Source: Flavobacteriales bacterium
GTDB lineage: Bacteria; Bacteroidota; Bacteroidia; Flavobacteriales; BACL11
Direction: 5' to 3'
DNA length: 40,997 nt
Assembly: GCA_002697505.1 (NCBI GenBank)
Contig: NZWA01000089.1
Coordinates: 1-40,997 of the forward strand
Shown here in pieces: positions 19,065 to 37,350 of the stretch. The notes under the pieces were generated by a model. The model was not told the origin of the DNA, made no database searches, and saw only the letters and a list, made by a program, of their open reading frames with translations. The translations under genes were made by a program, and so were the position numbers. Every line of letters starts with the position of its first letter. Position 1 is the stretch's first letter.

Positions 19065-20489
19065 ATGCAATTACCAAAACTACAGAAGGTTTCTTCAAGA
19101 CCAAAAAAGAAGAAAATCTTATTGTTGTCAGACGATTTAAGGATGCATAGTGGAGTCGGTACTATGTCAAGAGAAATAGTATTCGGAACTATTGATAAGT
19201 ACGATTGGGTTCAAGTAGGTGGTGCTATCAAACATCCTGATAATGGTAAGATAGTTGATATGAATCAGGCAGTTAGAGAAGAGACTGGTGTAGAGGATGC
19301 ATCATTAAAAATTTATCCAATTGATGGTTATGGAAATCAAGAGATAGTTAGACAACTATTGGTAGAAGAAAAACCAGATGCCATCCTACACTATACAGAC
19401 CCAAGATTTTGGATTTGGTTATATCAAATGGAACACGAGATAAGACAAAGTATTCCAATATTTTATTACAATATATGGGACAACCTACCTTATCCAACAT
19501 GGAATGAACCATTCTATGAGTCTTGTGATTTGATTATGAATATTTCAAAACAAACACATAACATAGTTCATAATGTATGTAAAAATAAACCAAGGACAGA
19601 TTGGGATTCAACTTATATACCACATGGTATCAATGAAAAACATTTTTATCCAATCGTTGATGAAGACGAAACATTCAAAGTAAATAAACTAAGAAATGAA
19701 TTGTTCCAAGGTACTGAAGTAGAATTTTGTATACTATTCATCAATAGAAATATCAGAAGAAAGATGACTTCAGATTTAATTATGGCATTCAAAACATTCG
19801 CAGATGGATTGACAGAAGAACAAAGAAAGAAAGTTGGATTTGTTTTACATACTGAACCAGTTGATAATAATGGAACAGACTTACCTGCAGTTATTGAAGA
19901 GTTATGTCCTGACTTAAACATTGTATTTTCAAAGGATAAACTTAATAATGAAGGAATGAATCAACTCTATAATGCAGTTGACCTTACCGTGAATATTGCA
20001 TCTAATGAAGGATTCGGATTAGGAACTTGTGAATCTCTAATGTGTGGAACACCAATCATAGTAAATGTTACAGGTGGACTACAAGACCAATGTGGGTTCA
20101 AATTTAGAGACCATTTCTTAACTTACAAAGATTATACTAAGATTGAATCACTACACGATTGGAGAAAGTGGGAAAACAATAAAGATTTAACATATGGTGA
20201 ATGGGTAAAACCAGTATGGCCGAGAACTCGTTCAGTTCAAGGTTCAGTACCAACACCATTTATTATGGATGATAGAGTTGATTGGGTTGATGTTGCAGAT
20301 GCATTAAGATATTGGTATGATAAATCACCAGAAGAGAGAAAAGAGGCAGGACTACTTGGACATGAATTCGTAACAGGTGATAATGGTATGATGAGTGCAA
20401 GACACATGAGTGAGTTATTCATAGACCACATGGAAACTGCGTTTGAAAAGTGGACACCAAGAAAAAGTTATGAGGTACATGAAGTATGA
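19065..20489 (+). CDS. Glycosyltransferase, GT-B fold (GT4-like)
   Basis: C-terminal NEGFGLGTCESLMCGTPIIVNVTGGLQDQ (EX7E-type motif). N-terminal KILLLSDD...GVGT. Confidence 0.75.
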   Translation: MQLPKLQKVSSRPKKKKILLLSDDLRMHSGVGTMSREIVFGTIDKYDWVQVGGAIKHPDNGKIVDMNQAVREETGVEDASLKIYPIDGYGNQEIVRQLLVEEKPDAILHYTDPRFWIWLYQMEHEIRQSIPIFYYNIWDNLPYPTWNEPFYESCDLIMNISKQTHNIVHNVCKNKPRTDWDSTYIPHGINEKHFYPIVDEDETFKVNKLRNELFQGTEVEFCILFINRNIRRKMTSDLIMAFKTFADGLTEEQRKKVGFVLHTEPVDNNGTDLPAVIEELCPDLNIVFSKDKLNNEGMNQLYNAVDLTVNIASNEGFGLGTCESLMCGTPIIVNVTGGLQDQCGFKFRDHFLTYKDYTKIESLHDWRKWENNKDLTYGEWVKPVWPRTRSVQGSVPTPFIMDDRVDWVDVADALRYWYDKSPEERKEAGLLGHEFVTGDNGMMSARHMSELFIDHMETAFEKWTPRKSYEVHEV

Positions 20490-21808
20490 GTAAACCATTA
20501 ATATTAGTTACAGGACCAGTTGCCACAAGAAGTGGATATGGTAACCACACAAGAGATATTTGTAGAGCATTGATTGAAAGGGATAAGTATGATATCAGAA
20601 TCCAATCTATGAGATGGGGAAACACACCATTAAATGCATTGGAAGAACATAATCCACACCATAGAGAGATTCATAAAAGAATATTAAAACAACCTTCAAT
20701 GGAAAAACAACCAGATGTACATTTACATATAAGTGTACCAAATGAATTTCAACCATTGGCAAAAAAGAATATTGGAATTACTGCAGGTATAGAACACACA
20801 ATCCCACCAGGTCAATGGGTAGAGGGAATGAATCGTATGGATGTAAATATTATTACATCTGAATGGAGTGCAGTTAATTTCAAGAATGTATCATACGATA
20901 AGAAAGATAATCAAGGTAAGTTAATAGGACAACTAAAAGTTAATAGTCCGATGACTACATTATTTGAAGGTGCAGACCCTGACATATTTAAAGAAACAAA
21001 TGAGTTTTCAAAACAACTTGTTAGTGAGTTTGAGAAAATATCTACTGATTGGAATTTTTTATATACAGGTCATTGGTTACAAGGTGGTTTAGGTGAAGAC
21101 AGAAAAGATGTCGGTATGATGATTAAAGTATTTTTAGAAGTATTTAAGAATCACAAGAATCCACCAGGACTTATACTGAAATCAAGTAGTGCAGGATTCT
21201 CAGTTGTTGATAGGGAAGATATCAAAAAGAAGATTGATTATATCAAGAGAGATATAAAGGCAAAAACACTTCCTAAAATTTGGTTACTACATGGTGACTT
21301 AACAGATGACGAAATGAATCAATTATATAATCATCCAAAAGTAAAGGCACATTTATCATTCACACATGGTGAAGGATTTGGTAGACCATTATTAGAGGCA
21401 TCATTTAGTGGTAAACCTATTATTGCACCATGTGAAACTGGTCAAAAAGATTTCCTTGATGAAAACAATACCGTAAAACTACCTGGTCAATATGTAAAGG
21501 TTCCAAATAGGTCTTTTCCTAAAGAATTTTATGTTGATACTTGTGAGTGGTTTGGTGTAAACTATGGACTTGCATCTCAAATAATTAGAGATGTACATAA
21601 AAACTATACAAAGTATGCTGTCAAGGGTAAGAAACTGATGTTACTTAATAGAAGAATGTTTACTCATGATAAAATGAGAGAGAAATTAGAAGAGATAGTT
21701 GACCAACAATTATCATCACTTCCAAAACAAGTTGATATAAAGTTACCTAACATGAAAAAAGAAGACAAAAAAGAAGACAAAGGTTTACCTAAGTTAAGGA
21801 AGATATAA
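20486..21808 (+). CDS. Glycosyltransferase, GT-B fold (GT1/GT4-like)
   Basis: ILVTGPVATRSGYG at the N-terminus. HGEGFGRPLLEASFSGKPIIAPCETGQKDFL at the C-terminus. Confidence 0.65.
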   Translation: MSKPLILVTGPVATRSGYGNHTRDICRALIERDKYDIRIQSMRWGNTPLNALEEHNPHHREIHKRILKQPSMEKQPDVHLHISVPNEFQPLAKKNIGITAGIEHTIPPGQWVEGMNRMDVNIITSEWSAVNFKNVSYDKKDNQGKLIGQLKVNSPMTTLFEGADPDIFKETNEFSKQLVSEFEKISTDWNFLYTGHWLQGGLGEDRKDVGMMIKVFLEVFKNHKNPPGLILKSSSAGFSVVDREDIKKKIDYIKRDIKAKTLPKIWLLHGDLTDDEMNQLYNHPKVKAHLSFTHGEGFGRPLLEASFSGKPIIAPCETGQKDFLDENNTVKLPGQYVKVPNRSFPKEFYVDTCEWFGVNYGLASQIIRDVHKNYTKYAVKGKKLMLLNRRMFTHDKMREKLEEIVDQQLSSLPKQVDIKLPNMKKEDKKEDKGLPKLRKI

Positions 21809-22251
21809 TGTCAGAAGTAAAAACTAAATGTCCAAATTGTTTTTCTGAGAATCAATGTTTTGAAGAATCTACTGAACACTTTACTTCCTATATTTGTTTT
21901 AAATGTGGGTTCACAAGTAATTCATATTACAAAAATGATACAGAAGAACTAAAAAAGGCAGTTGAATCGTCAACACAATTGATGAATGAGATATCATTAT
22001 TTGACTATGATAGGAAAATAACTTGGTTTCCATCAGTATTAAACATGGGTAAGTTTGGAATAATTTATCCAGATGGTACTAAAAATAATTGGGTGTGGAA
22101 GTTTGCACAAGTAACTAAGTTAACAGAAGAAGAACAGAAAGACCCACAATATGAGGGACATGAACATAAATTAGATGTTGATAATGCACAATCATATGGA
22201 CAACATGAGTTTATGAATGCATGTAAAGATATGGGAATAATTAAAGAATGA
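21808..22251 (+). CDS. Hypothetical zinc-ribbon protein
   Basis: CPNCFSENQC ... CFKCGF near the N-terminus. Confidence 0.45.
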   Translation: MSEVKTKCPNCFSENQCFEESTEHFTSYICFKCGFTSNSYYKNDTEELKKAVESSTQLMNEISLFDYDRKITWFPSVLNMGKFGIIYPDGTKNNWVWKFAQVTKLTEEEQKDPQYEGHEHKLDVDNAQSYGQHEFMNACKDMGIIKE

Positions 22252-22733
22252 AGAACACATCTTGGGAAAGAGTTCAACCAGGTCAAATAGTTTCTTTTGT
22301 TTATAAGAATAAAAATGAAACAAAAGGAATCAAGAGAACCGTATTATGTTTAAGTAAAAGACATCCATATAGAAAGAAGAATGGAAGACTTACATACTTT
22401 TTTGTAGGGTTACAATTAGACACTGCCGTATCAAGACCAATAACTGCATCAAAGTTTCAGTCATTGATTGAACAATTTGGTGGACTAAGTAAAGATAAAA
22501 GGATTACCGAGGTTGGTAACTTTGAAGACACTATGTCAGTATCGGATATTAGACAATTATACAAAACACTAAAAGATTTCATAGAGAAGTATAAAATATT
22601 CAGAACATACAATTTAAGAGAATGTAGAAAAAGAAGAGTTTATCTTGAAGACGATTATCGTTATTTACCAAAAGAGTCTATGGATGATTTACTATTAGAA
22701 CAACAAATATCGGAAATAGATTTTGAACTATGA
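22248..22733 (+). CDS. Hypothetical protein
   Basis: Coupled ORF (ATGA overlap). No motif recognised. Confidence 0.5.
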   Translation: MKNTSWERVQPGQIVSFVYKNKNETKGIKRTVLCLSKRHPYRKKNGRLTYFFVGLQLDTAVSRPITASKFQSLIEQFGGLSKDKRITEVGNFEDTMSVSDIRQLYKTLKDFIEKYKIFRTYNLRECRKRRVYLEDDYRYLPKESMDDLLLEQQISEIDFEL

Positions 22734-23356
22734 AGATTACTTATGGTATAACCGTTCATAATGAACATGAAGAGATAAAGAAACTACTTGAGTTTCTTGT
22801 TGAACATCGTGATGAGGGTGATGAAATTGTTATATGTGATGATTACTCTGATTATCAATGTTGGAGAGTATTTGATGAATACATACATGGACAATATCCT
22901 GACATAGTTTTTTATGAACAACAATTAAATAATGATTTCGCAAGAAAGAAAAATTCAGTTATAGAAAAATCAACAGGTGACTATATATTTCATTTGGATG
23001 CAGACGAAATACCTAATGAAGTTCTCATGTCACAATTAAAAACCATACTTGAAATTAATGATGTAGATTTGATTTGGATTCCAAGAATCAATACGGTTGA
23101 TGGTATCACACAAGACCACATCAATAAGTGGGGATGGGTAGTAACAGAAAAAGGTTGGGTTAATTTTCCTGACTATCAAAGTAGAGTTTTTAGAAACCGA
23201 GATGATATAAGGTGGGAGAGACCAGTACATGAAAGGATTACAGGTTGTAAGACTTACTCACATCTACCACCACATGAAGAGTTATGTATTTATCATCCAA
23301 AAACAATAGAGAAACAAGAAAAACAAAATGAGTTATATAGTAAAATTATTAGATGA
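22730..23356 (+). CDS. Glycosyltransferase family 2-like (GT-A fold)
   Basis: ITYGITVHNEHEEIKKLLEFL...EIVICDDYSD and HLDADE (DxD). Confidence 0.7.
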   Translation: MKITYGITVHNEHEEIKKLLEFLVEHRDEGDEIVICDDYSDYQCWRVFDEYIHGQYPDIVFYEQQLNNDFARKKNSVIEKSTGDYIFHLDADEIPNEVLMSQLKTILEINDVDLIWIPRINTVDGITQDHINKWGWVVTEKGWVNFPDYQSRVFRNRDDIRWERPVHERITGCKTYSHLPPHEELCIYHPKTIEKQEKQNELYSKIIR

Positions 23357-24080
23357 ACTTAAAGACCAAGGTGTCGTAGGTATAAAACAATCATTTGAAG
23401 ATGAAGGTGTATTAGATTCAGACCTTTGGAAAATATCTAAAGTATGTAGAGACTTAGACTTAAAGTTAAGTGTTAAGATTGGTGGTTGTGAGGCTATCTC
23501 TGATATAAATCGTTGTATTGATTTAGAAGTTAATGGTATAGTTGCACCAATGATTGAGTCAAGGTTTGCATTACAAAAGTTTTCAGAGTCTATAAATAAG
23601 TTACCTTATCATGGTAACAAGTTTATTAATATTGAAAGTGTACAGGCATACAAGAATTTAAATGATATATTAGAATCACCTACAAGTAAAATGTTAAGTG
23701 GTATTGTAGTAGGTCGTTCTGATTTAACTAAGTCATTTGGATATGGAAAACAAGATGTTATGTCAGATGAAATTTGTAGAGTAGTAACCTACATACTACA
23801 AGAGTCAAAAAAGTTAGGAATGAAAACATATATGGGTGGAAATATTGGTACTCAAAGTATAGAATTTATTCAAGAGTTATTCAATAAGGGATTCTTAGAT
23901 TGTATTGAGACACGAAATGTTATCTTAGGATTAGATGAAAGTAATATAAATGATTTAAGTAAAATCATTTCACATATGTTAGAGTGGGAATCTTTGTGGT
24001 TGGAAAGTAAGGCAACACATTATAACAGATTCTCAACAGAGTATAATACAAGGTCAAAAGAAATACAAGATAGATTATGA
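23328..24080 (+). CDS. HpcH/HpaI-aldolase / PEP-pyruvate-domain superfamily TIM-barrel enzyme
   Basis: GIVAPMIESRFALQKF ... INIESVQAYKNLNDILE ... GIVVGRSDLTKSFG parallels the PmVes...iEt..a..n..eI...G..DLs motif blocks. Confidence 0.5.
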   Translation: MSYIVKLLDELKDQGVVGIKQSFEDEGVLDSDLWKISKVCRDLDLKLSVKIGGCEAISDINRCIDLEVNGIVAPMIESRFALQKFSESINKLPYHGNKFINIESVQAYKNLNDILESPTSKMLSGIVVGRSDLTKSFGYGKQDVMSDEICRVVTYILQESKKLGMKTYMGGNIGTQSIEFIQELFNKGFLDCIETRNVILGLDESNINDLSKIISHMLEWESLWLESKATHYNRFSTEYNTRSKEIQDRL

Positions 24081-25201
24081 CAAGACAAGAACAATTACAA
24101 GAGTTATTCCACAATAACCAATATTTTAAAATGATATGTGGTGCAGGTAACGAAGATACCGAAGAAGTCAGAAGACTTGCAATGATTTATACATTGGCAG
24201 GTGCAAAAGGATTAGATATTTCAACAACACCTGATGTAGTAAAGGCGGCGATGGATGGTATTGATAGGGCATATGATATATCAGATAAACTTGGTATTGA
24301 TATTGGTGTAAGACCATATATTATGGTTAGTGTTGGAATGCCAGGTGACCATCATGTAAGAAAGGCACTTATAAATGAAGATACTTGTGTTAAGTGTGGT
24401 TTATGTGTTGCACCAGTTTGTCCTACAGAAGCGATTGAACCTATTCAAATAAAAGTTGAGACTGCATTTGTGATTACTGAGAAATGTATTGGGTGTGGTG
24501 CATGTAGTGCAGTTTGTCCTATTGTAGAGTGTATAACTTATAGTCATAATGAAAAGGCATTAGAAGAATTATTACCACAATGTTTAGAGTTAGGTGCAGA
24601 GAATATAGAGTTACACGCGGCAGTTGCAGAAACTGATGTAATTATGAAAGAATGGGAAATGGTTATTAAGGCAAATCCTGATGGACATAATAGTATGTGT
24701 TTAGATAGATTACACATTGGAAACTTTCAATTAAAAGATAGAATTGAAAAGGCATTGGAGATGACTAAACCAGGTTTAATGATATTACAGGCAGATGGTT
24801 ATCCAATGAGTGGTGGTAGAAATGATTTCAATACAACATTACAGGCAGTTGCAACTGCAGATGTAGTTAATAAACAATTTAACATGAGATTAAATAAGAA
24901 AGATAAACAATTAATATACAAAAGAAGAAGAGAGTTAAATGTTGTATTATCAGGTGGAACTAATTCATTAACTGCAGACTTGGCACTACAAGGTAATGTA
25001 AGATTCCAAGGAGTTGCAGTTGGAACATTTGCAAGAAACTTAATTTACAAACATATTAAAGAAGTCTACGATTATAATGATATGGAATTTTATAATGATT
25101 TAAATAATATTCGTGAAGCATATCTTATTGGAAAACAATTAGTAGATAGTAACATAAATAAAGGTGAAAGTTATGGGTCAAACACTTATATTCGCAGTTG
25201 A
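24077..25201 (+). CDS. Fe-S protein with 2x[4Fe-4S] ferredoxin motifs in a TIM-barrel-like context (LdpA-like)
   Basis: CVKCGLCVAPVCP and CIGCGACSAVCP. The N-terminal KMICGAGNED...IYTLAGAKGLDISTTPDVVKAAMDGI resembles cyanobacterial LdpA-type proteins, as far as I recall them. Confidence 0.55.
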   Translation: MTRQEQLQELFHNNQYFKMICGAGNEDTEEVRRLAMIYTLAGAKGLDISTTPDVVKAAMDGIDRAYDISDKLGIDIGVRPYIMVSVGMPGDHHVRKALINEDTCVKCGLCVAPVCPTEAIEPIQIKVETAFVITEKCIGCGACSAVCPIVECITYSHNEKALEELLPQCLELGAENIELHAAVAETDVIMKEWEMVIKANPDGHNSMCLDRLHIGNFQLKDRIEKALEMTKPGLMILQADGYPMSGGRNDFNTTLQAVATADVVNKQFNMRLNKKDKQLIYKRRRELNVVLSGGTNSLTADLALQGNVRFQGVAVGTFARNLIYKHIKEVYDYNDMEFYNDLNNIREAYLIGKQLVDSNINKGESYGSNTYIRS

Positions 25202-25544
25202 TTTTGATGGTTGTTTAGCAGAATTTGATTTTCCAAGTATAGGAGAACAAACTTCAAAACAAAAAAAATTAATGAATATTTTAAAAAAATTACAAGACAA
25301 AGGACATAAATTAATATTATGGACAAGTAGAGGTGAACCTGCACTACAAGAAGCAATTGATTGGTGTGAAGAAAAGGGATTGATATTTGATATGCATCAA
25401 GTTAATCCATTTACCAAAAAGATATCAGGACCGAGTCCTAAGATAATTGCAGACTATTATATTGATGATAAGGCATTAGAATTTGGTGATAATGAATCAC
25501 GAGACAGAACACTATTTTTATTGGAGAGATTGTTAGATGAGTAG
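25173..25544 (+). CDS. HAD-superfamily phosphatase-like protein
   Basis: FAVDFDGCL (motif I), ILWTSRG (motif II), YIDDKA (motif IV). AAGGTGA upstream favours ATG 25173 over the GTG at 25164. Confidence 0.55.
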   Translation: MGQTLIFAVDFDGCLAEFDFPSIGEQTSKQKKLMNILKKLQDKGHKLILWTSRGEPALQEAIDWCEEKGLIFDMHQVNPFTKKISGPSPKIIADYYIDDKALEFGDNESRDRTLFLLERLLDE

Positions 25545-26205
25545 GAAAAAAATAACCGCAGTGGTTCCTATTAGAAAAGGGTCACAAAGGATAATAGACA
25601 AGAACTTTATTCCATTTGTTGATGGGAAGAGTTTACTTGAGGTCAAACTTGAAATATTGAAGAAGATTACTTTAATTGATGAAATTATTGTTAATACTGA
25701 TTCAGATAAGGCATTAGAGATTGCAGACAAATATGGTGTTAGTAAAAAAGAAAGAGAACCATACTTTGCAAGTAATGAGTGTACCAATAGTGAGTTCTTT
25801 CAGAACATGGCAGAAACAACTGATACAGATTATTTAATCTATAGTCCATGTACTGCACCATTAGTTGAAGAGAGTACTTATTATGATTTCATTAATAGGT
25901 TTATCAATGGTATAGATAATGGACACGATAGTTTGACTACCGTAAATGTATTAAAACACCATATGTGGTTAGATGGAAAACCATTGAACTATGACCCAAA
26001 GAATTCACCAAATACACAAGACCTACCTGATATCTACAAACTAACTTATAGTCTTTCAATTATAGAAAGAGAGGCAATGTTAGAGTGTAAAAATATAGTT
26101 GGTAACACACCACACTTTTATCAGATAGATGAAGTTGAGGGAGTTGATATTGATAATCAGATTGACTTTGATTTTGCAAAGTTTTTATATGGGAGAGTAA
26201 AATAA
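25537..26205 (+). CDS. Acylneuraminate/ulosonate cytidylyltransferase family (CMP-sugar synthetase, NeuA/PseF/KdsB-like)
   Basis: ITAVVPIRKGSQRIIDKNFIPFVDGKSLLEVKLEIL...EIIVNTDSD matches aiIPARgGSKrl..KN...l.GkpLi...vsTDs. Confidence 0.75.
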   Translation: MSRKKITAVVPIRKGSQRIIDKNFIPFVDGKSLLEVKLEILKKITLIDEIIVNTDSDKALEIADKYGVSKKEREPYFASNECTNSEFFQNMAETTDTDYLIYSPCTAPLVEESTYYDFINRFINGIDNGHDSLTTVNVLKHHMWLDGKPLNYDPKNSPNTQDLPDIYKLTYSLSIIEREAMLECKNIVGNTPHFYQIDEVEGVDIDNQIDFDFAKFLYGRVK

Positions 26206-30166: not shown

Positions 30167-30350
30167 GTCAACACAAAAATCAATCACATGGAGATTGATT
30201 GCATTTAGTAATTCATGGATGATACTGGCATTAGGGTTGACTGAATTACCATTTTGGAATGCAGTGATTATGAATGTAACAGGAATGATAATGTTTTATT
30301 TCCATGAAAGAGTATGGAATAGAGTAAGGAGTGGAAGAAATGTTAATTAA
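30144..30350 (+). CDS. DUF2061-like small membrane protein
   Basis: KSITWRLIAFS...MFYFHERVWNRV fits the K-x-x-x-WR ... HER-x-W pattern of DUF2061. Confidence 0.4.
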   Translation: MFQETRSRSTQKSITWRLIAFSNSWMILALGLTELPFWNAVIMNVTGMIMFYFHERVWNRVRSGRNVN

Positions 30351-30580: not shown

Positions 30581-31255
30581 GTGACAGAAACAAATTTAAT
30601 AGTTGCAATAGATGATTTACATCCACAGAAAGGTTGGGGTTGTGAAGGTGATATTCAAGTAGAGTATCTAAAAGAACTCAATAAAAAATATGGAGTTAAA
30701 TTCAATTTATTTTGTCCAAGTTATTATCATAATGAATATCCATTAACAAAAGATTGGGTATCATATTGGAAACAATTTGATTGGGTGGAGTTGAGTAATC
30801 ATGGACATTACCACGATGTCAAAAAATACACCAAAGAAGAAATAGGTGAACAAGAATTCTTAGAATTAAATAAAGATGAGGCAGTGGATAGAGTTAGAGA
30901 TAGTTTAAATCTATGGGAACAATGTGGACACAAACCAAAAGGATTCAGAGCACCAGGTTGGGGAATATCACAAGAGGCTGCAGATGTAGTTAGTGAAAAC
31001 TTTGAATGGGTTGCACAACATGAACAAATCAATCAAGGTATACGATTTGACACTAAGTTATTTTGGGGTGCAGATGGTATTCATCAAAGTGATGATGTAA
31101 AATTATATGGAAACACATTTATGTTCCAATCACATATACAAGGAGATTGGAATGATAATACATGGAATGAAGAAAATTTTAACTATTTTCAGAGAATCTT
31201 AGACTATTTATTATCACAATTCAAAATAGAGTTCAAAACAATTTCAGAGTTATGA
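30581..31255 (+). CDS. Polysaccharide deacetylase-like (NodB/DUF2334-type) protein
   Basis: GTG start. IAIDDLHP, NHGHYHD and FRAPGWGIS correspond to the D-D, H-x-x-x-H and R-x-P-x-G blocks. Confidence 0.5.
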   Translation: MTETNLIVAIDDLHPQKGWGCEGDIQVEYLKELNKKYGVKFNLFCPSYYHNEYPLTKDWVSYWKQFDWVELSNHGHYHDVKKYTKEEIGEQEFLELNKDEAVDRVRDSLNLWEQCGHKPKGFRAPGWGISQEAADVVSENFEWVAQHEQINQGIRFDTKLFWGADGIHQSDDVKLYGNTFMFQSHIQGDWNDNTWNEENFNYFQRILDYLLSQFKIEFKTISEL

Positions 31256-32160
31256 AGATTACATTTTTTTCAGAGAGTCAAGTTAGAGGTAAAGTTCCAA
31301 GAGATTTTGAGAACGCTCGTACAGAGTTCGGATGGAGTATCGCGTTAGACGCAGAGTGGTGTCCAATAGGACAGGCACCAAGTGATAAATGTGATTTGGG
31401 TATTGTAATAATACCAAAGAACAATCCTAATATAAACATACGGACATTCAGAAGTTATTGTGATAAGGTTGCAGTAATGCAAGAAGGCCCTAATTGGTAT
31501 TTCCAAGATTATACTATTGATAAACAATTTCAATATTATAATGCATTGATAGATGCAGATTGGGTTTATTGTCATAACGAAAGTGATGTGAATTACTATC
31601 TTGGATTAGGTTGTAAAGATGTTAGAGTGATGAGAAGTTTGATGATTACTGATGGTTTGATTCCACGAAATGAGTGGGGTGATGGTACAATGATTGGTGG
31701 TAACTTTTGTAGTTGGTATGGTGGATTTGATTCCTATATGATTGCAAGACAGATAGGTAATCCTATTAGTTGTCCATCAATGGGTAGAAAACAAGAACAA
31801 GAAGATTTAATAGAGGACATAAATTATTTACCTTATATGAGTTGGAGAGATTGGATAAATAGTTTATCACAATATAATATAGGTATTCATTTAATGAGAA
31901 CACATGCAGCAGGAACCTTTAGTATGAATTGTGGGTTTCATGGAATTCCATGTATTGGATATAAGGGATTGGATACACAAGAGTTAATCCATCCATTAAC
32001 TTCAGTAGAGGTTGGTGATTTGGATAAGGCAGTTGAATTGGGTAAGAAACTAAAGGATGAAAAGTTTTATAAATTATGTAGTGAGACTGCAATGAAAAGA
32101 TTTAATGATTATTATACAGAGGAGGCGTGGTTAAAACATTGGAACAAAACAAACACATAG
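31252..32160 (+). CDS. Hypothetical protein, possibly a GT-B-fold glycosyltransferase
   Basis: HAAGTFSMNCGFHGIPCIGYKGLDTQE resembles the fG..lEAmA.G.PvI...gg..E segment. Weak. Confidence 0.3.
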   Translation: MKITFFSESQVRGKVPRDFENARTEFGWSIALDAEWCPIGQAPSDKCDLGIVIIPKNNPNINIRTFRSYCDKVAVMQEGPNWYFQDYTIDKQFQYYNALIDADWVYCHNESDVNYYLGLGCKDVRVMRSLMITDGLIPRNEWGDGTMIGGNFCSWYGGFDSYMIARQIGNPISCPSMGRKQEQEDLIEDINYLPYMSWRDWINSLSQYNIGIHLMRTHAAGTFSMNCGFHGIPCIGYKGLDTQELIHPLTSVEVGDLDKAVELGKKLKDEKFYKLCSETAMKRFNDYYTEEAWLKHWNKTNT

Positions 32161-33140
32161 AATTTTATCCAATTAGAGACATACTAATTGGTGTTCCATC
32201 TGAAGATGTTGCAACACATGACGCAGTTAATCCACACTTATCATTAGGTTATGAACCACCAAAAATAGAAGGATTTCCATTATTTGGTCAGATACAAATT
32301 CAAACAATAGAATTTTGTAATTTGAAATGTGACTTTTGTCCTAATCACTATATGATATGGGACAGGTTAGAGGGAAAGAAAAAAGGTATTCCTTATAATA
32401 TCATGTCTATTGAAAACTATACCAAAATAGTAAAGAACTTGGCAGACTTAAATTTTACTGGTAGAGTTTCACCTTATCTTATGAATGAACCATTAATGGA
32501 TAAAGATAGAATGGTAGAGATAATTGGAATAACAAGAAAATATTTACCAAAAAATCCAATCAAAATTAATACAAATGGAACAGGATTAACTACAGAACTT
32601 CTTGGTGATATGATTGATGCAGGACTAACTTCAATACAAATAGATGATTATTTTGATGATAGATATGCCACTAAATTACTAAAACAATTAGAACCATTTC
32701 AAGGTGTTAATGGTAAATGTTTTATTACATTGTCATCAAATTACAATGTGACACAAATGAAAAAAGGTATGTCAAAGGATAGTCACTTCGGCCCATTTAC
32801 ATTTTGGAATCGTGGTGGTTTAACAAATGTGAATCCTGATATGCCAGTTCCACAAAAAGATTGTCATTTTCCAAGTTCACAAATGTATATAAAGTGGAAT
32901 GGAGATGCATTGTTATGTTGTTGTGATTGGGAATATAAAGTGATACATGGTAATGTTATAAATGAAAGAATTGAAGATGTATGGATTAACGATTCATATA
33001 CTCATTACAGAGAGACATTAAAAAAAGGACAGAGAGATAAACTTAGAATGTGTAGAAAATGTAACAAAGGTGCATTTCCAAGTGAAGAGAAACGATTAGA
33101 ACATTTAAGAGAGTGGTTAAAAGAAAATGAAACCGATTAG
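32127..33140 (+). CDS. Radical SAM enzyme with a SPASM-like C-terminal Cys-rich domain
   Basis: CNLKCDFCPNH (CxxxCxxC). C-terminal CHFP...LLCCCDWE...CRKC. There is no ATG before the cluster motif, so the start must be GTG 32127 or TTG 32139. Confidence 0.75.
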   Translation: MVKTLEQNKHIEFYPIRDILIGVPSEDVATHDAVNPHLSLGYEPPKIEGFPLFGQIQIQTIEFCNLKCDFCPNHYMIWDRLEGKKKGIPYNIMSIENYTKIVKNLADLNFTGRVSPYLMNEPLMDKDRMVEIIGITRKYLPKNPIKINTNGTGLTTELLGDMIDAGLTSIQIDDYFDDRYATKLLKQLEPFQGVNGKCFITLSSNYNVTQMKKGMSKDSHFGPFTFWNRGGLTNVNPDMPVPQKDCHFPSSQMYIKWNGDALLCCCDWEYKVIHGNVINERIEDVWINDSYTHYRETLKKGQRDKLRMCRKCNKGAFPSEEKRLEHLREWLKENETD

Positions 33141-34314
33141 TTTTATAATACCAAGTAGAAATAATTTAACTTATCTGAAGTGGTGTTACGAAAGTATTCG
33201 TAAGAACTCATCAGTAGAACATGAGATATGTTTCGCAGATGACGCCTCAACAGATGGAACATTAGAACATATATTAGTTTGGATGAAGAGAGACAAAAAT
33301 ATCAAACTTCATGTAAACAAAGGCCCCGAAAGAGAAGGACTTACAATACTATATGATAAGTTAGTGAATGAGTACGCAACCAATGATAGAGTTGTGTTCT
33401 TTCATTCCGATATGTATTTGTGTCCAAATGCAGATAAAGAAATAGATAGGTTATTAGAAAAAGGTAAGGTTGTATCACTTACAAGAATAGAACCACCACT
33501 ACATCCTGATGGGCCAGAGAAAGTATTGAAAGACTTTGGAATAGAACCTGAAGAGTTTGATGAAGAAGGATTATTAGAGTTTCTTGAAGAAGACAAACAA
33601 GGTGAAGATAGAGTTACAGAGGGTGTGTTTGCACCTTGGGCAATATACAAGGAAGACTTCCAATCAATTGGTGGACACGATAAATTATTCAGACCACAAT
33701 CAAAAGAAGATTCAGATATATTCAATAGACTACATTTAAATGGTGTTAAGTTTATACAGACTTGGCAAGGTTATGTTTACCATATGACTTGTAGAGGTTC
33801 AAGATTTAATCCATCTGCAGGTGGTGCACCAGGTAAAGATAGTCCTGAATGGATTGAGACAACAACTAAAAATATGAGAAACTTCATAAGAAAATGGGGT
33901 ACTGCAGTCCAACATGATGAACATATGAAACCGATAGTCTCACCTAAATATGATATTGGTATTGTGATTGAGAATTATTGTGATTACAACATATTATCTA
34001 ATTGTGAACCATGGTGTAGTAATATATTTGTACCAGATGGTGGTTACTTACAAGAATATATTAAGAATGAACAACCAAGAACAGACTACTCATTGAGAAG
34101 AAGAGTTCATCGTGATAGGGCATATCCTAAAAATGGTATAGTGGTTAGAATTGATGGTGAACGATTAAACAATGAAAACTTTCAGTTCATTACAAAGTTA
34201 CCTGATATAATAAAAGATAGTGGTGATTTTGGTTCATTTGAATTAGGTATATTAAAAATTAGAATTACCAACCTACAAACTTCAGAGGAGACACTAATAA
34301 AAAATGATAATTAA
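33127..34314 (+). CDS. Glycosyltransferase family 2
   Basis: ISFIIPSRNNLTYLKWCYESI...EICFADDASTDGT is a classical GT2 N-terminus. A DxD-like FHSDMY follows. Confidence 0.8.
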   Translation: MKPISFIIPSRNNLTYLKWCYESIRKNSSVEHEICFADDASTDGTLEHILVWMKRDKNIKLHVNKGPEREGLTILYDKLVNEYATNDRVVFFHSDMYLCPNADKEIDRLLEKGKVVSLTRIEPPLHPDGPEKVLKDFGIEPEEFDEEGLLEFLEEDKQGEDRVTEGVFAPWAIYKEDFQSIGGHDKLFRPQSKEDSDIFNRLHLNGVKFIQTWQGYVYHMTCRGSRFNPSAGGAPGKDSPEWIETTTKNMRNFIRKWGTAVQHDEHMKPIVSPKYDIGIVIENYCDYNILSNCEPWCSNIFVPDGGYLQEYIKNEQPRTDYSLRRRVHRDRAYPKNGIVVRIDGERLNNENFQFITKLPDIIKDSGDFGSFELGILKIRITNLQTSEETLIKNDN

Positions 34315-34975
34315 TTTATTTGGAGATAGTTTTATATATGGGACTTGTGCACAACACCACGAAGATGGTAGAAGAATGGACATTGACTATTGGTTAACTA
34401 AAAAAGGTTGGAGTGTTAGTAATTATGGATATAATGGTTCAAATAATACTGAAGTATTATCTTCTATCAAAGAAAATCCATTTGGTGAAGAGTGTTTTTG
34501 TGTTGTGGGTGTAACATCATTCTTAAGAGAAAATTTACCATGGTTAGGTTTCGCATCTTCTTGGGGTAGAAATATTCTTAAAGAGGATAGATTTGACCAT
34601 CCAAATCTTGAGAATCCACAGACTAATGAATTATGGGAAGATTATTTAATTTATTGTTATGATGATGAATATTTTAATACAATATATAAAATTTGGTTAT
34701 TAAAGGTAAAACACTTACTTGATAATACACCTAATGTAAAAGGGTATTTATTTGTAAATACGGTAGAAAAGTATAAAAAACCTATGTTTGTGGAAAAAGA
34801 AAACTATTTATATACAGATAGTTCTATCACAGATATGTTGGTAGATAAAGAAGATGAGAAATTATTTGAAGGTGGACTAACTGAAGAAACATTCTTAGAA
34901 GGTAGAGCACATCCATCAACATTAGGATACAAATTAGTAGCAGAAGATATTCATGACATATTTCATAATACATAA
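34304..34975 (+). CDS. SGNH/GDSL-type hydrolase (esterase/O-acetyl-modifying enzyme)
   Basis: Block I IINLFGDSFIYGT, block II-like NYGYNGSN, block V-like RAHPSTLGYKLVAEDI. Confidence 0.5.
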   Translation: MIINLFGDSFIYGTCAQHHEDGRRMDIDYWLTKKGWSVSNYGYNGSNNTEVLSSIKENPFGEECFCVVGVTSFLRENLPWLGFASSWGRNILKEDRFDHPNLENPQTNELWEDYLIYCYDDEYFNTIYKIWLLKVKHLLDNTPNVKGYLFVNTVEKYKKPMFVEKENYLYTDSSITDMLVDKEDEKLFEGGLTEETFLEGRAHPSTLGYKLVAEDIHDIFHNT

Positions 34976-35204
34976 AGAAGAATCAAAAGAAAACTTGATG
35001 TTCAGTAGTAATATATTGGGTGAAGAAAGTTTAGGTTCATTTTATCCTGACCAAGGTTGGGTTGCACTAAATAATATGATTCATCAGAGTCCTGAATCAA
35101 TTAGTAACTACACGATTTTAGATGAAAAAGGAAAAACATTTACACTAACAGAATTGTTAGATAAAGTTGAGAAGTTAAAAATAAGAACCATGTGTGGAAG
35201 GTAA
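34953..35204 (+). CDS. Hypothetical protein
   Basis: 83-aa ORF. No motif recognised. Start uncertain. Confidence 0.4.
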   Translation: MTYFIIHKEESKENLMFSSNILGEESLGSFYPDQGWVALNNMIHQSPESISNYTILDEKGKTFTLTELLDKVEKLKIRTMCGR

Positions 35205-35254: not shown

Positions 35255-35416
35255 ATGTCAAATTATAGTTGGGAAGATTGGGAAGAACTTGAAGAGGAGA
35301 CTTTCCGTGAAAGAATACAACCAAAAATAAAACCAAAAAGGAAGAAAAAAAGTTATGATGATATTACTAAAAAACAAACTAATCAAATCAATAAAAAACA
35401 TCCTAATAGGAAGTAG
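35255..35416 (+). CDS. Unlisted small ORF (53 aa, acidic N-terminus and Lys-rich C-terminus)
   Basis: AAGGAG at 35243-35248 lies 6 nt before ATG 35255. The product is MSNYSWEDWEELEEETFRERIQPKIKPKRKKKSYDD... It is below the track length cut-off and overlaps the next gene by 62 nt in another frame. Confidence 0.4.
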   Translation: MSNYSWEDWEELEEETFRERIQPKIKPKRKKKSYDDITKKQTNQINKKHPNRK

Positions 35417-35978
35417 TTTTTTATTTTTCATAGGGTGTGAATCTACATGGGAACAACTCTATGAAACATTTGGTAGTGATTACTCTTCATCAGAGTATCC
35501 TACATTTGAATTAGAATTAAGAATTGATTTACCACAAGATGAGAATGGATATTACCATCTTGAATTGGATGATGAAAACTGGCAAACTATCCAAAGGTTA
35601 GAGGGTAGAGTCATCAGTAGTAAAACAGACTACGAGTCTTGGGAACGAAATGATATGGAGTCATTGAAAATACATTGGCGTTCTAATTTATATTGGGTGT
35701 TAGGTGATACACTTGGATATATTATAAAATATGATTATACTGATGATGTTGAATATGTATCTTATGATACTACTTATGTCACAGGTTTTGATGGACAAGA
35801 AGTTCCAACAATAAATCCTTCATCTTATCCAACTATCAAAGACGATGGTACAGGTGAAATCAATACAATGTTTGCACCAGTCCAAACGATGGTTGGTGAT
35901 ACTGCATTTGTTAATGTATCATTTACAGACTGGCATAACGATTACAAGGACAAAACCTTTGGTATAATATTAGAATAG
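35355..35978 (+). CDS. Putative lipoprotein
   Basis: A basic N-terminus is followed by a hydrophobic core and a lipobox-like FIGC (…GSSFLFFIGC/ESTW). Confidence 0.55.
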   Translation: MMILLKNKLIKSIKNILIGSSFLFFIGCESTWEQLYETFGSDYSSSEYPTFELELRIDLPQDENGYYHLELDDENWQTIQRLEGRVISSKTDYESWERNDMESLKIHWRSNLYWVLGDTLGYIIKYDYTDDVEYVSYDTTYVTGFDGQEVPTINPSSYPTIKDDGTGEINTMFAPVQTMVGDTAFVNVSFTDWHNDYKDKTFGIILE

Positions 35979-35988
35979 GAGAGTAGAG

Positions 35989-36261
35989 TTGCAGTATGTT
36001 TTAGTAAATAAATTAGATGAAATAGTTGATAAAGTAGATATGAGTGATGTGGGTCTTAATGGAGCAAAGACTTATTTTGTTGGTAGAAAACAAATAGAAG
36101 TACAAGAATTTGATAAACTATGGAAAGTGATGAGTAGACAAGAATATGATACTCAGTTTGAGACAACAAATAGAAAACCATCATCAGTTGGTTATCAATG
36201 GTGGAAAGAAGATAAGGCCGAAACAGACGAGGCCATGAGTGGTAAGGATGGATTAGGATGA
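35989..36261 (+). CDS. Hypothetical protein
   Basis: TTG start preceded by AGGAGAG. 90 aa. No motif recognised. Confidence 0.4.
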   Translation: MQYVLVNKLDEIVDKVDMSDVGLNGAKTYFVGRKQIEVQEFDKLWKVMSRQEYDTQFETTNRKPSSVGYQWWKEDKAETDEAMSGKDGLG

Positions 36262-36371
36262 TTGAAACAATAATAACAATAGTTTTTTGTATTGTATTTT
36301 ACAGATTAAATGTAGAATTAGATAAAGATATTTTTGAACAATACAGAGATGTTGAAAGGGATATAAGATAA
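36258..36371 (+). CDS. Unlisted 37-aa single-TM protein (paralogue A)
   Basis: ATGA overlap with the upstream stop and TAATG overlap with the downstream start. The product is MIETIITIVFCIVFYRLNVELDKDIFEQYRDVERDIR. A diverged copy sits at 38477-38602. Confidence 0.55.
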   Translation: MIETIITIVFCIVFYRLNVELDKDIFEQYRDVERDIR

Positions 36372-36619
36372 TGGAAGCAGTATGGATTGCATTTAGTTGT
36401 GGAATATTTTTAGGTATAGTATTAGGTATATTAATATTAGGATTAGTTAGTATCAATAGAGATAACAAACTTCGTGATGATATAATGGACTTAAATGGTG
36501 AAATAGATGACTTAAGAACTCAAAGAGAGTTGTTAAAGAAAGAAATATTTAGATTAACCAAAAGAGGTAAACCACAACCAAGAAAAAGAAGACCTTATAA
36601 GAAAAATTATAAAAAATAA
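36371..36619 (+). CDS. Bitopic membrane protein: N-terminal TM, coiled coil, Arg/Lys-rich tail
   Basis: WIAFSCGIFLGIVLGILILGLV forms the TM helix. It is followed by DDIMDLNGEIDDLRTQRELLKKEIFRL and then KRGKPQPRKRRPYKKNYKK. Confidence 0.5.
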   Translation: MEAVWIAFSCGIFLGIVLGILILGLVSINRDNKLRDDIMDLNGEIDDLRTQRELLKKEIFRLTKRGKPQPRKRRPYKKNYKK

Positions 36620-37350
36620 TGATTCAGGCATCAGTATTTTCAATACCTAAAAGTAAAATAATGATATATACTGGTGCCAAACTTGGTTCAAGTCAAATAA
36701 GAAATATTTATTTAAGAAATGTCAATTATGAACACTTTGTGAGTGATGAAACTGATTATGAAAAATATGAAGATTATATTAAAGTATTTTTATATAGGAA
36801 TCCAATGGACAGATTCTTATCTGGTCAAGTCCAAGATTTGAGAGGATATTTTGAGGGTGTTGAATTTCATGAAGATATTTTTAAAAATAGACCAGATTTA
36901 GTTGATGATTTATACAGAATCTATACAGAGGAAAAAGATGAAGTTATTTATAACCACCATTCAATTATAGATTTACATGAAAGAATACATGTACTTAATA
37001 GATTTAAAGATTTAAATAAAGTTCATTTTATTAATCTAAAACAAGATTGGAGTAATTATTTAGAATGGTTTTTGTCTAAACAAATTGATAATTTTGATTG
37101 GGATAGAGAAAAACCCATAAATCACAAGTATGAAGTAAATACATTAAAAACTCTCTTAATACATGATGAACGATTTAAAAAAATAGATTTTATGGACAAC
37201 ATACTTACTGAAAAATACATTGAAGATATGAAGAAATCTATGGAAGTTTTTTCATATATTGAAACTCATAATAAAAATAGATTCATAACAAAGAGAGTTA
37301 CAAAAATCAGTAGAAAAAGTATTTTTTTTAAGGAGTTATTTTCCATATAA
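36619..37350 (+). CDS. Sulfotransferase-like protein (Sulfotransfer_2-type motifs)
   Basis: FSIPKSK (a 5'-PSB-like IPK-x-G/S) and VFLYRNPMDRFLSG (a 3'-PB-like RnP-x-x-R-x-x-S). Weak but specific-looking. Confidence 0.35.
   Translation: MIQASVFSIPKSKIMIYTGAKLGSSQIRNIYLRNVNYEHFVSDETDYEKYEDYIKVFLYRNPMDRFLSGQVQDLRGYFEGVEFHEDIFKNRPDLVDDLYRIYTEEKDEVIYNHHSIIDLHERIHVLNRFKDLNKVHFINLKQDWSNYLEWFLSKQIDNFDWDREKPINHKYEVNTLKTLLIHDERFKKIDFMDNILTEKYIEDMKKSMEVFSYIETHNKNRFITKRVTKISRKSIFFKELFSI

Follow-up and report, generated by a model that had tools for sequence, protein, structure and literature searches.

What does a phage build with a long run of carbohydrate-active genes, and on which acceptor, when the membrane machinery of bacterial polysaccharide pathways is missing from their surroundings? 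The question is raised by a 40,997-nucleotide stretch of DNA (hereafter the window) from a Flavobacteriales bacterium assembly (GCA_002697505.1, contig NZWA01000089.1, positions 1 to 40,997), in which a glycan-gene island runs from 19065 to about 35204. In marine phage genomes, few blocks without an explanation are as large as the glycan-gene islands, and large islands of this type without export genes are already a known category in marine T4-like phages. Pelagimyophages and cyanomyophages, for example, carry large hypervariable islands rich in lipopolysaccharide (LPS)-type glycosyltransferases and sugar-nucleotide genes, with 162 LPS-related proteins and a mean island length of 44.6 kb (PMC7029224). 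New here are the phage lineage, the arrangement of a conserved transferase scaffold around an exchangeable cassette, the cassette itself (an HpcH-like aldolase, an LdpA-like Fe-S protein, a haloacid dehalogenase (HAD) phosphatase and a cytidylyltransferase), and two relatives in culture that allow the acceptor to be determined. The reading that we prefer, at a rough probability of 0.4, is that the island is a self-contained cytoplasmic assembly line that glycosylates phage proteins, most likely virion proteins.

The island comprises about 24 open reading frames (ORFs), all on the forward strand, with overlapping or abutting ends and a largest gap of 137 nt. In 18 of 18 genes compared with an 85%-identical relative (L009), including ORFs without a family match and an upstream fragment of a UDP-glucose dehydrogenase (UGDH) gene, the ratio of nonsynonymous to synonymous substitution (dN/dS) is 0.05-0.19, and because of these ratios the island ORFs are to be regarded as real genes under purifying selection. 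Pseudogenes or an assembly artefact are ruled out by the same ratios and by identical gene structure across many independent contigs. The co-oriented block probably ends at an 83-aa protein (35204), and the best sigma-70-like site of the region, the only strong one, lies at 35213-35242 (+; TTGACA-18-TATATT), in the first sizeable gap 3' of the island. Window ORFs were searched against Pfam, NCBIfam, PHROGs and PDB, structure models were searched with Foldseek, and relatives were compared by local phmmer; the PHROGs search added nothing for the ORFs without a family. A first-pass annotation had called the region a phage island for glycan synthesis and decoration, and in this it was right. Its estimate that about 40% of the window encodes carbohydrate enzymes is reached only when unconfirmed ORFs, an upstream family 2 glycosyltransferase (GT2) and the UGDH fragment are counted, the confirmed ORFs amounting to about 30%. 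Pfam or NCBIfam matches bear out its calls of two GT4-like and two GT2 transferases, a DUF115/Maf-like protein, a CMP-sugar synthetase, a short-chain dehydrogenase/reductase (SDR), a radical S-adenosylmethionine (SAM)/SPASM enzyme and a truncated UGDH-like gene.

All long ORFs of the window lie on the forward strand, at a G+C content of about 31%, and its upstream half encodes the C-terminus of NrdA, a T4 gp43-type family B DNA polymerase (PolB), a clamp-loader ATPase, ClpP and a PD-(D/E)XK nuclease. The top GenBank phage match of PolB is Microcystis phage Mel-JY01 (45%), with classical cyanomyophages such as S-PM2 at about 33%. For the 10 kb upstream, an IMG/VR contig of 98% identity was used; it has genes for gp32, RecA, a 5'-3' exonuclease, a radical SAM enzyme and DnaB, in the gene order of Flavobacterium phage vB_FspM_immuto (hereafter immuto). 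Marine contigs from TARA, ENA and JGI include many with identical or near-identical window genes, and relatives of NrdA at 83-99% occur on more than 600 IMG/VR contigs. From the PolB match, the gene order and this marine occurrence, the window can be identified as a fragment of a marine T4-type myovirus that is abundant but uncultured and has its relatives in the Immutovirus/Mel-JY01 group. Against GenBank phages, megablast with the island in full length found nothing. The lineage is abundant and the cultured immuto and Mel-JY01 have the same scaffold, so that the target, be it virion, DNA or host surface, is directly testable.

That scaffold becomes visible when the relatives are aligned. Both immuto and Mel-JY01 have, at the same genomic position and in the same order, a PD-(D/E)XK nuclease, two GT4 genes, in some cases a small protein, a GT2, variable sugar genes and a larger GT2, and immuto additionally has an SDR and a GT-B enzyme related to ORF 31252 of the window. 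The left scaffold of the window opens with a GT4-like GT-B transferase of 474 aa (19065..20489, +; Pfam Glycos_transf_1 3e-6, 27.2 bits against a gathering threshold of 26.4; GT4-conflict 2e-5; dN/dS 0.11), whose orthologues are 50% identical in Mel-JY01 and 45% in immuto, with a 28% relative in Rhodothermus phage RM378. The second GT4-like GT-B enzyme (20486..21808, +; 440 aa; Glycos_transf_1 6e-6, at 26.4 exactly the gathering threshold) matches immuto at 7e-108 and Mel-JY01 at 2e-97 by phmmer, and for both assignments the orthologues in the two cultured phages, 45-50% identical and annotated as glycosyltransferases, are further support. Two small proteins follow (21808..22733, +), of 147 aa (a possible zinc ribbon, kept in immuto at 2e-24) and 161 aa, which have no significant family match and a dN/dS of 0.07 and 0.19; the left scaffold then closes with a 208-aa GT2 of GT-A type (22730..23356, +; Glycos_transf_2 8e-17), conserved in immuto and Mel-JY01. 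In the marine relatives the right scaffold has the order 27779-like, 28669-like, in some cases an SDR, 29693-like, DUF2334, 31252-like and GT2. The last of these is represented in the window by a 395-aa protein (33127..34314, +; Glycos_transf_2 1.6e-12) with orthologues in immuto (5e-123), Mel-JY01 (9e-12) and the variant islands L165 and L002.

What lies between the two arms differs from phage to phage. In the window and in L260-L265 this place is taken by the HpcH cassette, instead of which L165 and L166 (contigs of 120-173 kb) have FdtA, three DegT aminotransferases, an N-formyltransferase, sugar C-methyltransferases and a 2-oxoglutarate (2OG) oxygenase, and the middle of immuto encodes two WecE-type aminotransferases, a methyltransferase and a PglB-like acetyltransferase. 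The right half is variable in another way. From 37384 on, L001 and L002 are 98% nucleotide-identical to the window (proteins 99-100%), and yet the island proteins of L002 are only 39-75% identical; L002 has an adenosine 5'-phosphosulfate (APS) kinase and is devoid of the radical SAM, 34304 and 36619 genes. Position 37384, where L001 and L002 pass from diverged island sequence to this near-identity, marks a recombination boundary. Because relatives keep the transferases and differ in the middle, and because L002 diverges up to 37384, the island amounts to a conserved scaffold of transferases that takes up exchangeable sugar-supply cassettes and is hypervariable in its right half. The first-pass annotation had proposed to check for conservation as a unit in related viral contigs, and the island proves to be conserved. 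A similar variation between clades is seen in the fibril glycosylation clusters of giant viruses. In the reading that we prefer, the left genes (GT4, GT4, small protein, GT2) and the right genes (GT8-like, 28669-like, DUF2334, GT-B-like, GT2) would build a glycan backbone, and the swappable middle cassette would provide a strain-specific unusual sugar.

Two of the right-hand transferases are recognized by fold or by weak profiles. ORF 27779 (27779..28531, +; 250 aa), the first right-scaffold gene of the marine group, has no Pfam match even at E <=10 (GT8, PF01501, included) and none in PDB, either by sequence or by a profile built from alignment A2, and 0 of its 120 homologues carry a Pfam domain. 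Its AlphaFold model, built with 27 homologues, has a predicted local distance difference test (pLDDT) of 90, and the top Foldseek match in PDB is A64R, a capsid-glycosylating transferase of the chlorovirus PBCV-1 (2p6w, E 1e-8, TMt 0.76), followed by GlyE, the catalytic domain of UGGT and glycogenin (E 1e-8 to 1e-6, A64R included); at 9-14% identity this likeness is one of fold only. In the BFVD library of viral structures the matches are GT34/GT8 proteins of phages and giant viruses. Invariant residues are D80-x-D82, N135-x-G137 and H223-x-N-G-F-x-K229, and the model is that of a predicted GT-A fold with a DxD motif, closest to GT8/GT34/GT24 structures and compatible with a retaining GT8/GT34-like enzyme. 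The earlier GT8-like call accordingly survives as a statement about fold and fails as one about sequence profile. ORF 31252 (31252..32160, +; 302 aa), previously listed as a further GT-like protein, gives faint matches of the expected kind: a profile of 34 homologues (A3) finds four GT4 C-terminal domains in PDB, including BshA and WlaC, at E 0.011-0.07, and local phmmer finds an immuto 'GDP-mannose-dependent mannosyltransferase' at 1e-9, so that a divergent GT-B is weakly supported. Its family is without Pfam assignment, has no tblastn match in GenBank phages, and comprises 5,234 clusters at 90% identity and 419 representatives at 50% in public metagenomes. Single-sequence PDB searches for 27779, 28669, 31252, 36619 and 26205 returned nothing meaningful. 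Six of the 50%-identity representatives of the 31252 family (P0413, P0421, P0427, P0465, P0503 and P0504) contain Hint/intein domains, one of them with LAGLIDADG, and in 5 of the 6 the insertion is found some 240-270 residues into the protein. Highly conserved proteins are the usual hosts of inteins.

The machinery by which bacteria prime, flip, polymerize and export surface glycans was sought around these transferases. Pfam scans of the window ORFs yielded no priming transferase (a phosphoglycosyltransferase of WbaP/WecA type), no Wzx, Wzy or ATP-binding cassette (ABC) transporter and no GT-C enzyme; no priming transferase, flippase, polymerase, exporter, GT-C enzyme or polytopic membrane protein was found in the 10 kb upstream or the 9 kb downstream either (about 60 kb in all), and no priming transferase, flippase, polymerase or exporter in the 112 kb read of the cultured relative immuto. 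The components of seroconversion cassettes, namely the GtrA flippase, the GtrB bactoprenol glucosyltransferase and GT-C or acyltransferase-3 membrane enzymes, were likewise not detected in the window. A Kyte-Doolittle scan of the window found no polytopic protein. The first-pass annotation had listed as the only membrane proteins two tiny ones at 30144..30579 (+), a DUF2061 protein of 68 aa (30144-30350; Pfam 1.5e-6) and a single-transmembrane (TM) protein of 82 aa (30331-30579, by Kyte-Doolittle); it was correct about polytopic proteins and overlooked further single-TM proteins at 36371 and 38669. Its argument against a conventional O-antigen or capsule pathway extends to the flanks, and the survey supports the view that the locus is not a conventional Wzx/Wzy- or ABC-dependent cluster. 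Unlike the phage island, bacterial loci that share its cassette do carry an ABC transporter, and GtrA adjoins distant HpcH homologues in Legionella-type genomes.

The cassette occupies the space between GT2 22730 and the Maf-like gene 26205, and its first three genes had been missed by the first-pass annotation. The HpcH-like gene (23328..24080, +) matches Pfam HpcH_HpaI at 1.4e-6 (28.2 bits against a gathering threshold of 25), and its structure model (pLDDT 95) finds SbnG, HpcH/HpaI, SwHKA and pyruvate kinase barrels with Foldseek (E ~1e-9, TM ~0.6). Residues E103/S104 and R130-S131-D132 are invariant in alignment A1; E103 and D132 lie 29 residues apart in the motifs 'NIES' and 'GRSDL', which is consistent, at the level of the alignment, with the metal pair of HpaI (E149, D175), and the same alignment reveals no evident equivalent of the pyruvate-binding R70 of HpaI. 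Profile and barrel fold together place the protein, as a predicted member, in the HpcH/HpaI class II oxo-acid aldolase family. A phosphoenolpyruvate (PEP) mutase of a phosphonate pathway was considered and rejected, the profile and fold being of HpcH/HpaI type, the cytidylyltransferase being of PseF/KdsB rather than LicC/PntC type, and the window containing no thiamine diphosphate (ThDP) decarboxylase. The second gene (24077..25201, +; NCBIfam CircClkLdpA 5e-42, alignment 10-328 of 360; Pfam Fer4_21 3.5e-12, LdpA_C 2e-6) encodes a barrel (DUF561/LdpA_C) with an inserted 2x[4Fe-4S] ferredoxin; at 144 bits against the CircClkLdpA cutoff of 450 it is LdpA-like by architecture and not an LdpA orthologue, and its match to PDB is confined to the ferredoxin part. 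A cyanophage origin by way of LdpA was also rejected, on account of this score far below the equivalog cutoff and of the nearest cassette homologues, which belong to SAR86, Chloroflexota, SAR11 and unassigned low-GC marine contigs.

The third gene (25164..25544, +) encodes a small cap-less HAD phosphatase of 126 aa (NCBIfam BT0820-family HAD phosphatase 3e-21), and the fourth (25537..26205, +) a cytidylyltransferase that matches PseF over its full length (NCBIfam 1.7e-18, 67 bits against a cutoff of 206) and Pfam CTP_transf_3 above the gathering threshold (8e-10), with weaker matches to KdsB models; it is a predicted CMP-sugar-acid synthetase. The gene directly adjoining it (26205..26885, +) encodes an MptE-like/DUF115 (Maf-type) putative CMP-sugar-acid transferase (Pfam MptE-like 3e-12, 47 bits against a gathering threshold of 34.6, covering 14-168 of 171 domain positions; dN/dS 0.05), which at only 226 aa is without the flanking Maf domains. 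The sequence of reactions that we infer would begin with the HpcH-fold aldolase joining pyruvate or PEP to an aldose or aldose phosphate to give a 3-deoxy-2-ulosonic acid. The LdpA-like protein may then carry out a redox tailoring step, the HAD enzyme would strip the phosphate, the PseF/KdsB-like enzyme would yield the CMP-activated acid, and the Maf/DUF115-like enzyme would transfer it. This proposed order of condensation, HAD dephosphorylation and CMP activation resembles the KdsA-KdsC-KdsB pathway to CMP-Kdo and the NANS-NANP-CMAS pathway to CMP-sialic acid, from which it differs in that the condensing enzyme is an HpcH/pyruvate-kinase-type barrel and not of KdsA/NeuB type, and in the extra Fe-S protein. 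No member of the NeuB, SAF or DegT families (nonulosonate synthase, PseB/PseC-type precursor enzymes) was found in the window, where the HpcH-fold enzyme stands in that place.

The same four genes, in the same order and at 56-69% identity, recur in low-GC marine contigs, inside polysaccharide loci that also hold UGDH, SDRs, an ABC transporter, DegT and NeuB. Among reference genomes, the HpcH-like family adjoins a cytidylyltransferase in SAR86 (54%) and Pelagibacteraceae (36-40%), and in Chloroflexota and Omnitrophota the HpcH-like gene occurs together with the LdpA-like gene and the HAD; the make-up varies, and some genomes are without the LdpA-like gene and the HAD. A scan of IMG/VR recovered 71 viral contigs with an HpcH-like gene, of which 22 have the LdpA-like gene and 21 the HAD, so that the two genes almost always co-occur and are gained or lost jointly. 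Since the cassette travels en bloc at 56-69% in bacterial polysaccharide loci, and since the LdpA-like and HAD genes come and go together in the 71 viral contigs, it can be taken as a real unit. In L262 and L263, whose HpcH and Maf-like proteins are 89-90% and 93% identical to those of the window, the LdpA-like and HAD genes are missing and the cytidylyltransferase is a different one, 59% identical, as if one cassette had been exchanged for another inside a single phage lineage. Because the cytidylyltransferase co-varies with the presence of LdpA and HAD, its two versions may activate different acids. Distant HpcH-like homologues (33-39%) occur in about a dozen giant-virus contigs from metagenome-assembled genomes (MAGs; L287, L298 and L300-L309, IMG/VR GVMAG), and other distant homologues in bacteria (L024-L072; Legionella, Coxiellaceae, Vampirovibrionales, Planctomycetota) have as neighbours a ThDP enzyme, a dehydroquinate synthase (DHQS)-like protein, an SDR, GtrA and a GT2, which suggests a related yet different sugar pathway. 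A tblastn search with the HpcH-like, LdpA-like and Maf-like proteins against 50,697 GenBank phage records gave no match. The searchable literature contains neither a description of the cassette nor a paper linking HpcH-type enzymes with cytidylyltransferases, and the HpcH/LdpA-like/HAD/cytidylyltransferase combination appears to be uncharacterised and common to marine bacteria, phages and, in part, giant viruses. As a possible new route by which SAR86, SAR11, Chloroflexota and viruses obtain an activated sugar acid, it stands independently of the acceptor question.

As for the acceptor, the island holds at least seven transferase-type proteins, soluble enzymes only and dedicated nucleotide-sugar synthesis. 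Because no lipid-carrier priming enzyme, flippase or exporter accompanies them, and because the scaffold is kept across host phyla, the phage itself would encode the acceptor, most probably virion proteins or other proteins of the phage that receive their glycan in the cytoplasm ahead of assembly. The direct adjacency of the PseF-like cytidylyltransferase 25537 and the DUF115/Maf-type 26205 is in keeping with this. In Campylobacter, Helicobacter and Aeromonas, such a pairing is found in the islands for flagellin glycosylation, which proceeds in the cytoplasm and without a lipid carrier. Like those nonulosonic-acid islands (Pse/Leg with PseF/PtmB and Maf), the phage island sets a CTP_transf_3 gene beside a DUF115/MptE-like gene and has soluble enzymes and the logic of cytoplasmic protein O-glycosylation; unlike them, it has no NeuB/PseI, no PseB/C/H/G and no flagellin, with the HpcH-fold enzyme, the LdpA-like protein and the HAD instead. 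A minor hint of a protein acceptor may be seen in the protein- or peptide-directed relatives of 27779 (A64R, GlyE, UGGT, glycogenin) and of GT2 22730, whose top NCBIfam match, far under the family cutoff, is the SunS peptide S-glycosyltransferase (9e-11). SPASM enzymes, one of which is encoded at 32127, usually act on peptides. The strong constraint also counts on this side, with the low dN/dS values, the size of the 31252 family and the inteins in some of its members, as do the variable middle and the coherence of the cassette.

Two groups of viruses offer precedents for such a system. Giant viruses (PBCV-1 A64R and its partners; the fibril clusters of Megavirinae; PMC9614988) have their own nucleotide-sugar pathways, cytoplasmic transferases that need no lipid carrier, and clade-specific rare sugars of bacterial type, all of which are paralleled here, as are the A64R match of 27779 and the HpcH-like genes of giant-virus MAGs. 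The present case differs in that it concerns a bacterial virus whose island is known from genes alone, and in the fold-level nature of the 27779 likeness. The first-pass annotation had placed the island close in scale to giant-virus glycosylation machinery, a comparison that these two matches favour, though the scale itself is ordinary for marine T4-like phages (PMC7029224). In mycobacteriophages, phage transferases have been reported to decorate capsid and tail-tube proteins in the cytoplasm (Freeman et al. 2023, as cited in PMC12619734); those systems, in so far as that account describes them, use two or three transferases and host sugars, unlike the at least seven transferases and dedicated sugar biosynthesis found here. 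If the virion is indeed the target, complex virus-encoded glycosylation would no longer be a giant-virus speciality, and marine virion surfaces would bear a variable glycan layer affecting adsorption, stickiness and decay. A wider proposal, which we hold as tentative and somewhat doubtful, is that phages of this marine lineage run a giant-virus-like autonomous protein glycosylation, and that the strain-swapped sugar is here a new CMP-activated 3-deoxy-ulosonic-type acid, made by an undescribed HpcH/LdpA-like/HAD route that SAR86, SAR11 and other marine bacteria also use for surface polysaccharides.

Several observations weigh against protein glycosylation. No acceptor protein was found and the window contains no structural genes, the searchable literature holds no glycoproteomic data for immuto or Mel-JY01, and the inspection covered about 60 kb, a part of the genome. 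The protein-directed similarities are weak, under family cutoffs and prone to database bias. The cassette and many of the tailoring genes stem from bacterial surface-polysaccharide loci with ABC transporters, and the right half is hypervariable between near-identical phages; taken together with the origin of the cassette, this variability fits remodelling of the host surface equally well. Finally, the island lies in a replication and nucleotide-metabolism module, beside the nuclease, a DUF1599 protein and an SLOG protein, which is where genes for DNA modification would be expected.

Remodelling of the host envelope is a serious though rather unlikely alternative, in which the phage enzymes add unusual nucleotide sugars to lipid-linked O-antigen, capsule or O-glycosylation intermediates of the host at the cytoplasmic face, the host machinery completes the process, and the altered surface blocks superinfection or keeps progeny virions off lysing cells. 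This is the published interpretation of the pelagimyophage and cyanomyophage islands (PMC7029224), which the present island resembles in its many transferases and sugar-nucleotide enzymes (UGDH, epimerases), a prominent GT8-like protein, strong variability and the lack of reported export machinery. The kinship of the cassette with bacterial polysaccharide loci (56-69% identity, next to UGDH, ABC transporter, DegT and NeuB genes) speaks for it, as does a right half at 39-75% amino-acid identity beside a flank of 98% nucleotide identity from 37384, a pattern typical of surface-recognition arms races; a SusC-like receptor, a lipoprotein-like protein and the small membrane proteins in the window imply, moreover, that the phage alters the envelope. 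The resemblance to the published islands has its limits, however: the lineage is another one by PolB and gene order, the island follows the replication module and is not placed among tail-fibre genes, and it combines a cross-phylum scaffold with an exchangeable sugar cassette and a CMP-acid/Maf-like module. Envelopes differ between phyla, whereas the transferase scaffold is shared by phages of Flavobacterium and Microcystis, which leans away from what a host-specific surface acceptor predicts. The island is also without the Gtr-type, Wzx-type or acyltransferase-3 membrane component that known seroconverting phages carry, and at least seven transferases under strong constraint would be a very large investment in host-surface remodelling. 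The first-pass annotation had left the choice between cytoplasmic protein glycosylation and hijacked lipid-linked intermediates; the evidence leans to a phage-intrinsic acceptor, although sequence by itself does not settle the choice, and a third option, glycosylation of DNA, had been overlooked.

In that third option some or all of the transferases, chiefly the GT4-GT4-GT2 core beside the PD-(D/E)XK nuclease, would glycosylate modified bases as a defence against restriction. T4-like phages are known to build DNA oligosaccharides with GT4-like GT-B enzymes and with HAD, nucleotidyltransferase and isomerase genes of their own (PMC13326640; bioRxiv 2023.12.21.572611): besides the alpha- and beta-glucosyltransferases of T4, RB69 and DLP3 attach arabinose oligomers to 5-hydroxycytosine by means of GT4-like enzymes and phage HAD and nucleotidyltransferase genes (PMC13326640), and glycans on 5-hydroxymethylcytosine are a further case (bioRxiv 2023.12.21.572611). 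The window shares with these systems the T4-type background, GT4-like GT-B enzymes, HAD and nucleotidyltransferase genes, variability among relatives (DNA glycans, too, are hypervariable among close phages) and a position near replication genes, with the nuclease, DUF1599 and an SLOG/DprA-like protein as neighbours. In addition, immuto encodes a long ThyA homologue (423 aa), a thymidylate-kinase-like protein, an NTP pyrophosphohydrolase and a DpdA/7-deazaguanine pathway. When the ThyA homologue was sought in contigs of the lineage, 541 matches were obtained, the best 80 of which include no contig linked to the window. What makes DNA glycosylation distinctly improbable is that the window and its flanks of about 19 kb, a part of the genome, yielded no pyrimidine hydroxylase or hydroxymethylase, no TET/JBP enzyme and no dCTPase, and that a CMP-activated acid (predicted), a Maf-like protein, DUF2334, the pathways to formylated or methylated amino sugars in the variants and at least seven transferases exceed the described DNA glycans, which are at most trisaccharides; GT8-like 27779, furthermore, resembles protein glycosyltransferases. 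The genes directly upstream of the island that bear on this option lie at 15912-16310 and 17966-18809 (+) and encode DUF1599 ('nucleotide modification associated domain 1'), DUF2515 and the SLOG/DprA-like protein, flanking the UGDH fragment and the PD-(D/E)XK nuclease.

A last alternative concerns lipids. Here the GT4 enzymes would glycosylate diacylglycerol or phosphatidylglycerol on the inner leaflet, and later enzymes would extend and deacetylate the product, to remodel membrane lipids (for example to spare phosphorus during infection) or to make a lipoglycan, with no need of polyprenyl priming. Marine bacteria are known to substitute glycolipids when phosphate is limiting. Matches of GT4 19065 to alpha-monoglucosyl-diacylglycerol synthase (NCBIfam, 2e-7) and of the DUF2334 protein (30581..31255, +; Pfam DUF2334 9e-14) to GlcNAc-phosphatidylglycerol deacetylase (NCBIfam, 6e-7) point in this direction, as does the UGDH fragment upstream. 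Both NCBIfam matches are, however, partial and far under the family cutoffs, and a glycolipid or intracellular polymer would leave the CMP-acid/Maf module, the rare amino-sugar variants and the hypervariability unexplained, so that we regard it as very improbable. The DUF2334 match also upholds in part the earlier call of a NodB-type deacetylase for 30581, DUF2334 being, as we assume, related to the NodB deacetylases.

Among the remaining genes of the island, the extended SDR (26895..27797, +; Pfam Epimerase 6e-50) has an immuto orthologue (7e-92) and matches GalE, LegB and RmlB of NCBIfam at about 1e-31 to 1e-33, each under its cutoff, as expected of an NDP-sugar epimerase or dehydratase. Two conserved proteins of 360 and 157 aa (28669..30166, +) have, apart from a weak DUF4254 match, no family, and homologues of the pair occur at the same position in L002, L165 and L009. 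The radical SAM/SPASM enzyme (32127..33140, +; Radical_SAM 5e-12, SPASM 2e-12) is restricted to the window and its nearest relatives and absent from the L002 and L165 variants. A possible SGNH esterase of 223 aa shares 34304..35204 (+) with the conserved 83-aa protein; Lipase_GDSL_2 matches the candidate at E 0.17 and in block I only, NCBIfam gives no match, and the translation has an N-terminal GDS and a C-terminal 'AHP' motif. The right fringe (35355..37350, +) consists of a lipoprotein-like protein of 207 aa, a 90-aa protein, the single-TM protein of 82 aa (36371) and a 243-aa protein (36619), none with a family match. The last had been called sulfotransferase-like; it has no match in Pfam, NCBIfam, PHROGs or PDB and is absent from L001 and L002, and the earlier calls of esterase and sulfotransferase are thus left with motif resemblance and no profile. 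The motifs 'PKS' and 'RNPMDRFLS' of 36619 resemble what we take to be the binding motifs for 3'-phosphoadenosine 5'-phosphosulfate (PAPS). In the variant island L002, the APS kinase (1609-1998) lies at about the place of the DUF2061 gene 30144-30350, and the two observations hint at possible glycan sulfation in the lineage. Upstream of the island, the UGDH fragment (16310..17140, +; 276 aa) matches positions 70-181 of 187 of UDPG_MGDP_dh_N and the central domain of the UDP-glucose/GDP-mannose dehydrogenases, and is devoid of the first ~70 residues of the NAD domain and of the entire C-terminal domain. With equal length in every contig shown to hold the whole gene, and a dN/dS of 0.17, it is a conserved truncated form rather than a decaying pseudogene.

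Sugar-related genes are not confined to the island. The 9 kb downstream of the window (L001 5950-14926) encode a NodU/CmcH-type carbamoyltransferase, PhyH, Methyltransf_24, a DUF6071 protein with relatives found only at 26-29% identity, and a GT25, interspersed with an inosine monophosphate dehydrogenase (IMPDH)/GMP-reductase-like gene, Cpn10, a phosphoribosyltransferase and a nucleoside phosphorylase. A separate second modification module lies at 9760-14088 (+), with a GT2 of 413 aa, a 76-aa zinc-ribbon protein, an aminoacyl-tRNA synthetase (aaRS)-like ligase of class II ('amino acid-[acyl-carrier-protein] ligase', NCBIfam 9e-28) and a neighbour of 473 aa with no family match. Concerning the host, signs of Bacteroidota are the receptor of SusC type, the HAD of BT0820 type and the relative among Flavobacterium phages, unlike the top GTDB genome match of the cassette, which is SAR86. 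The receptor itself (1032-3767, +) is a 911-aa SusC/RagA-type TonB-dependent outer-membrane protein with CarboxypepD_reg and Plug domains and a signal peptide, encoded within the phage replication module, and it may be a hint of a Bacteroidota host or a nutrient-uptake auxiliary gene. Its matches in GenBank phages are only at about 30%; two of them, from unannotated gut 'Bacteriophage sp.' fragments, span nearly the whole protein, and those in megaphages of ~630 kb cover about 20% of it. Upstream of the window, between the 5'-3' exonuclease and DnaB, the locus L088 (6135-7265) encodes a second radical SAM/SPASM protein, in which SPASM stands N-terminal to the radical SAM core.

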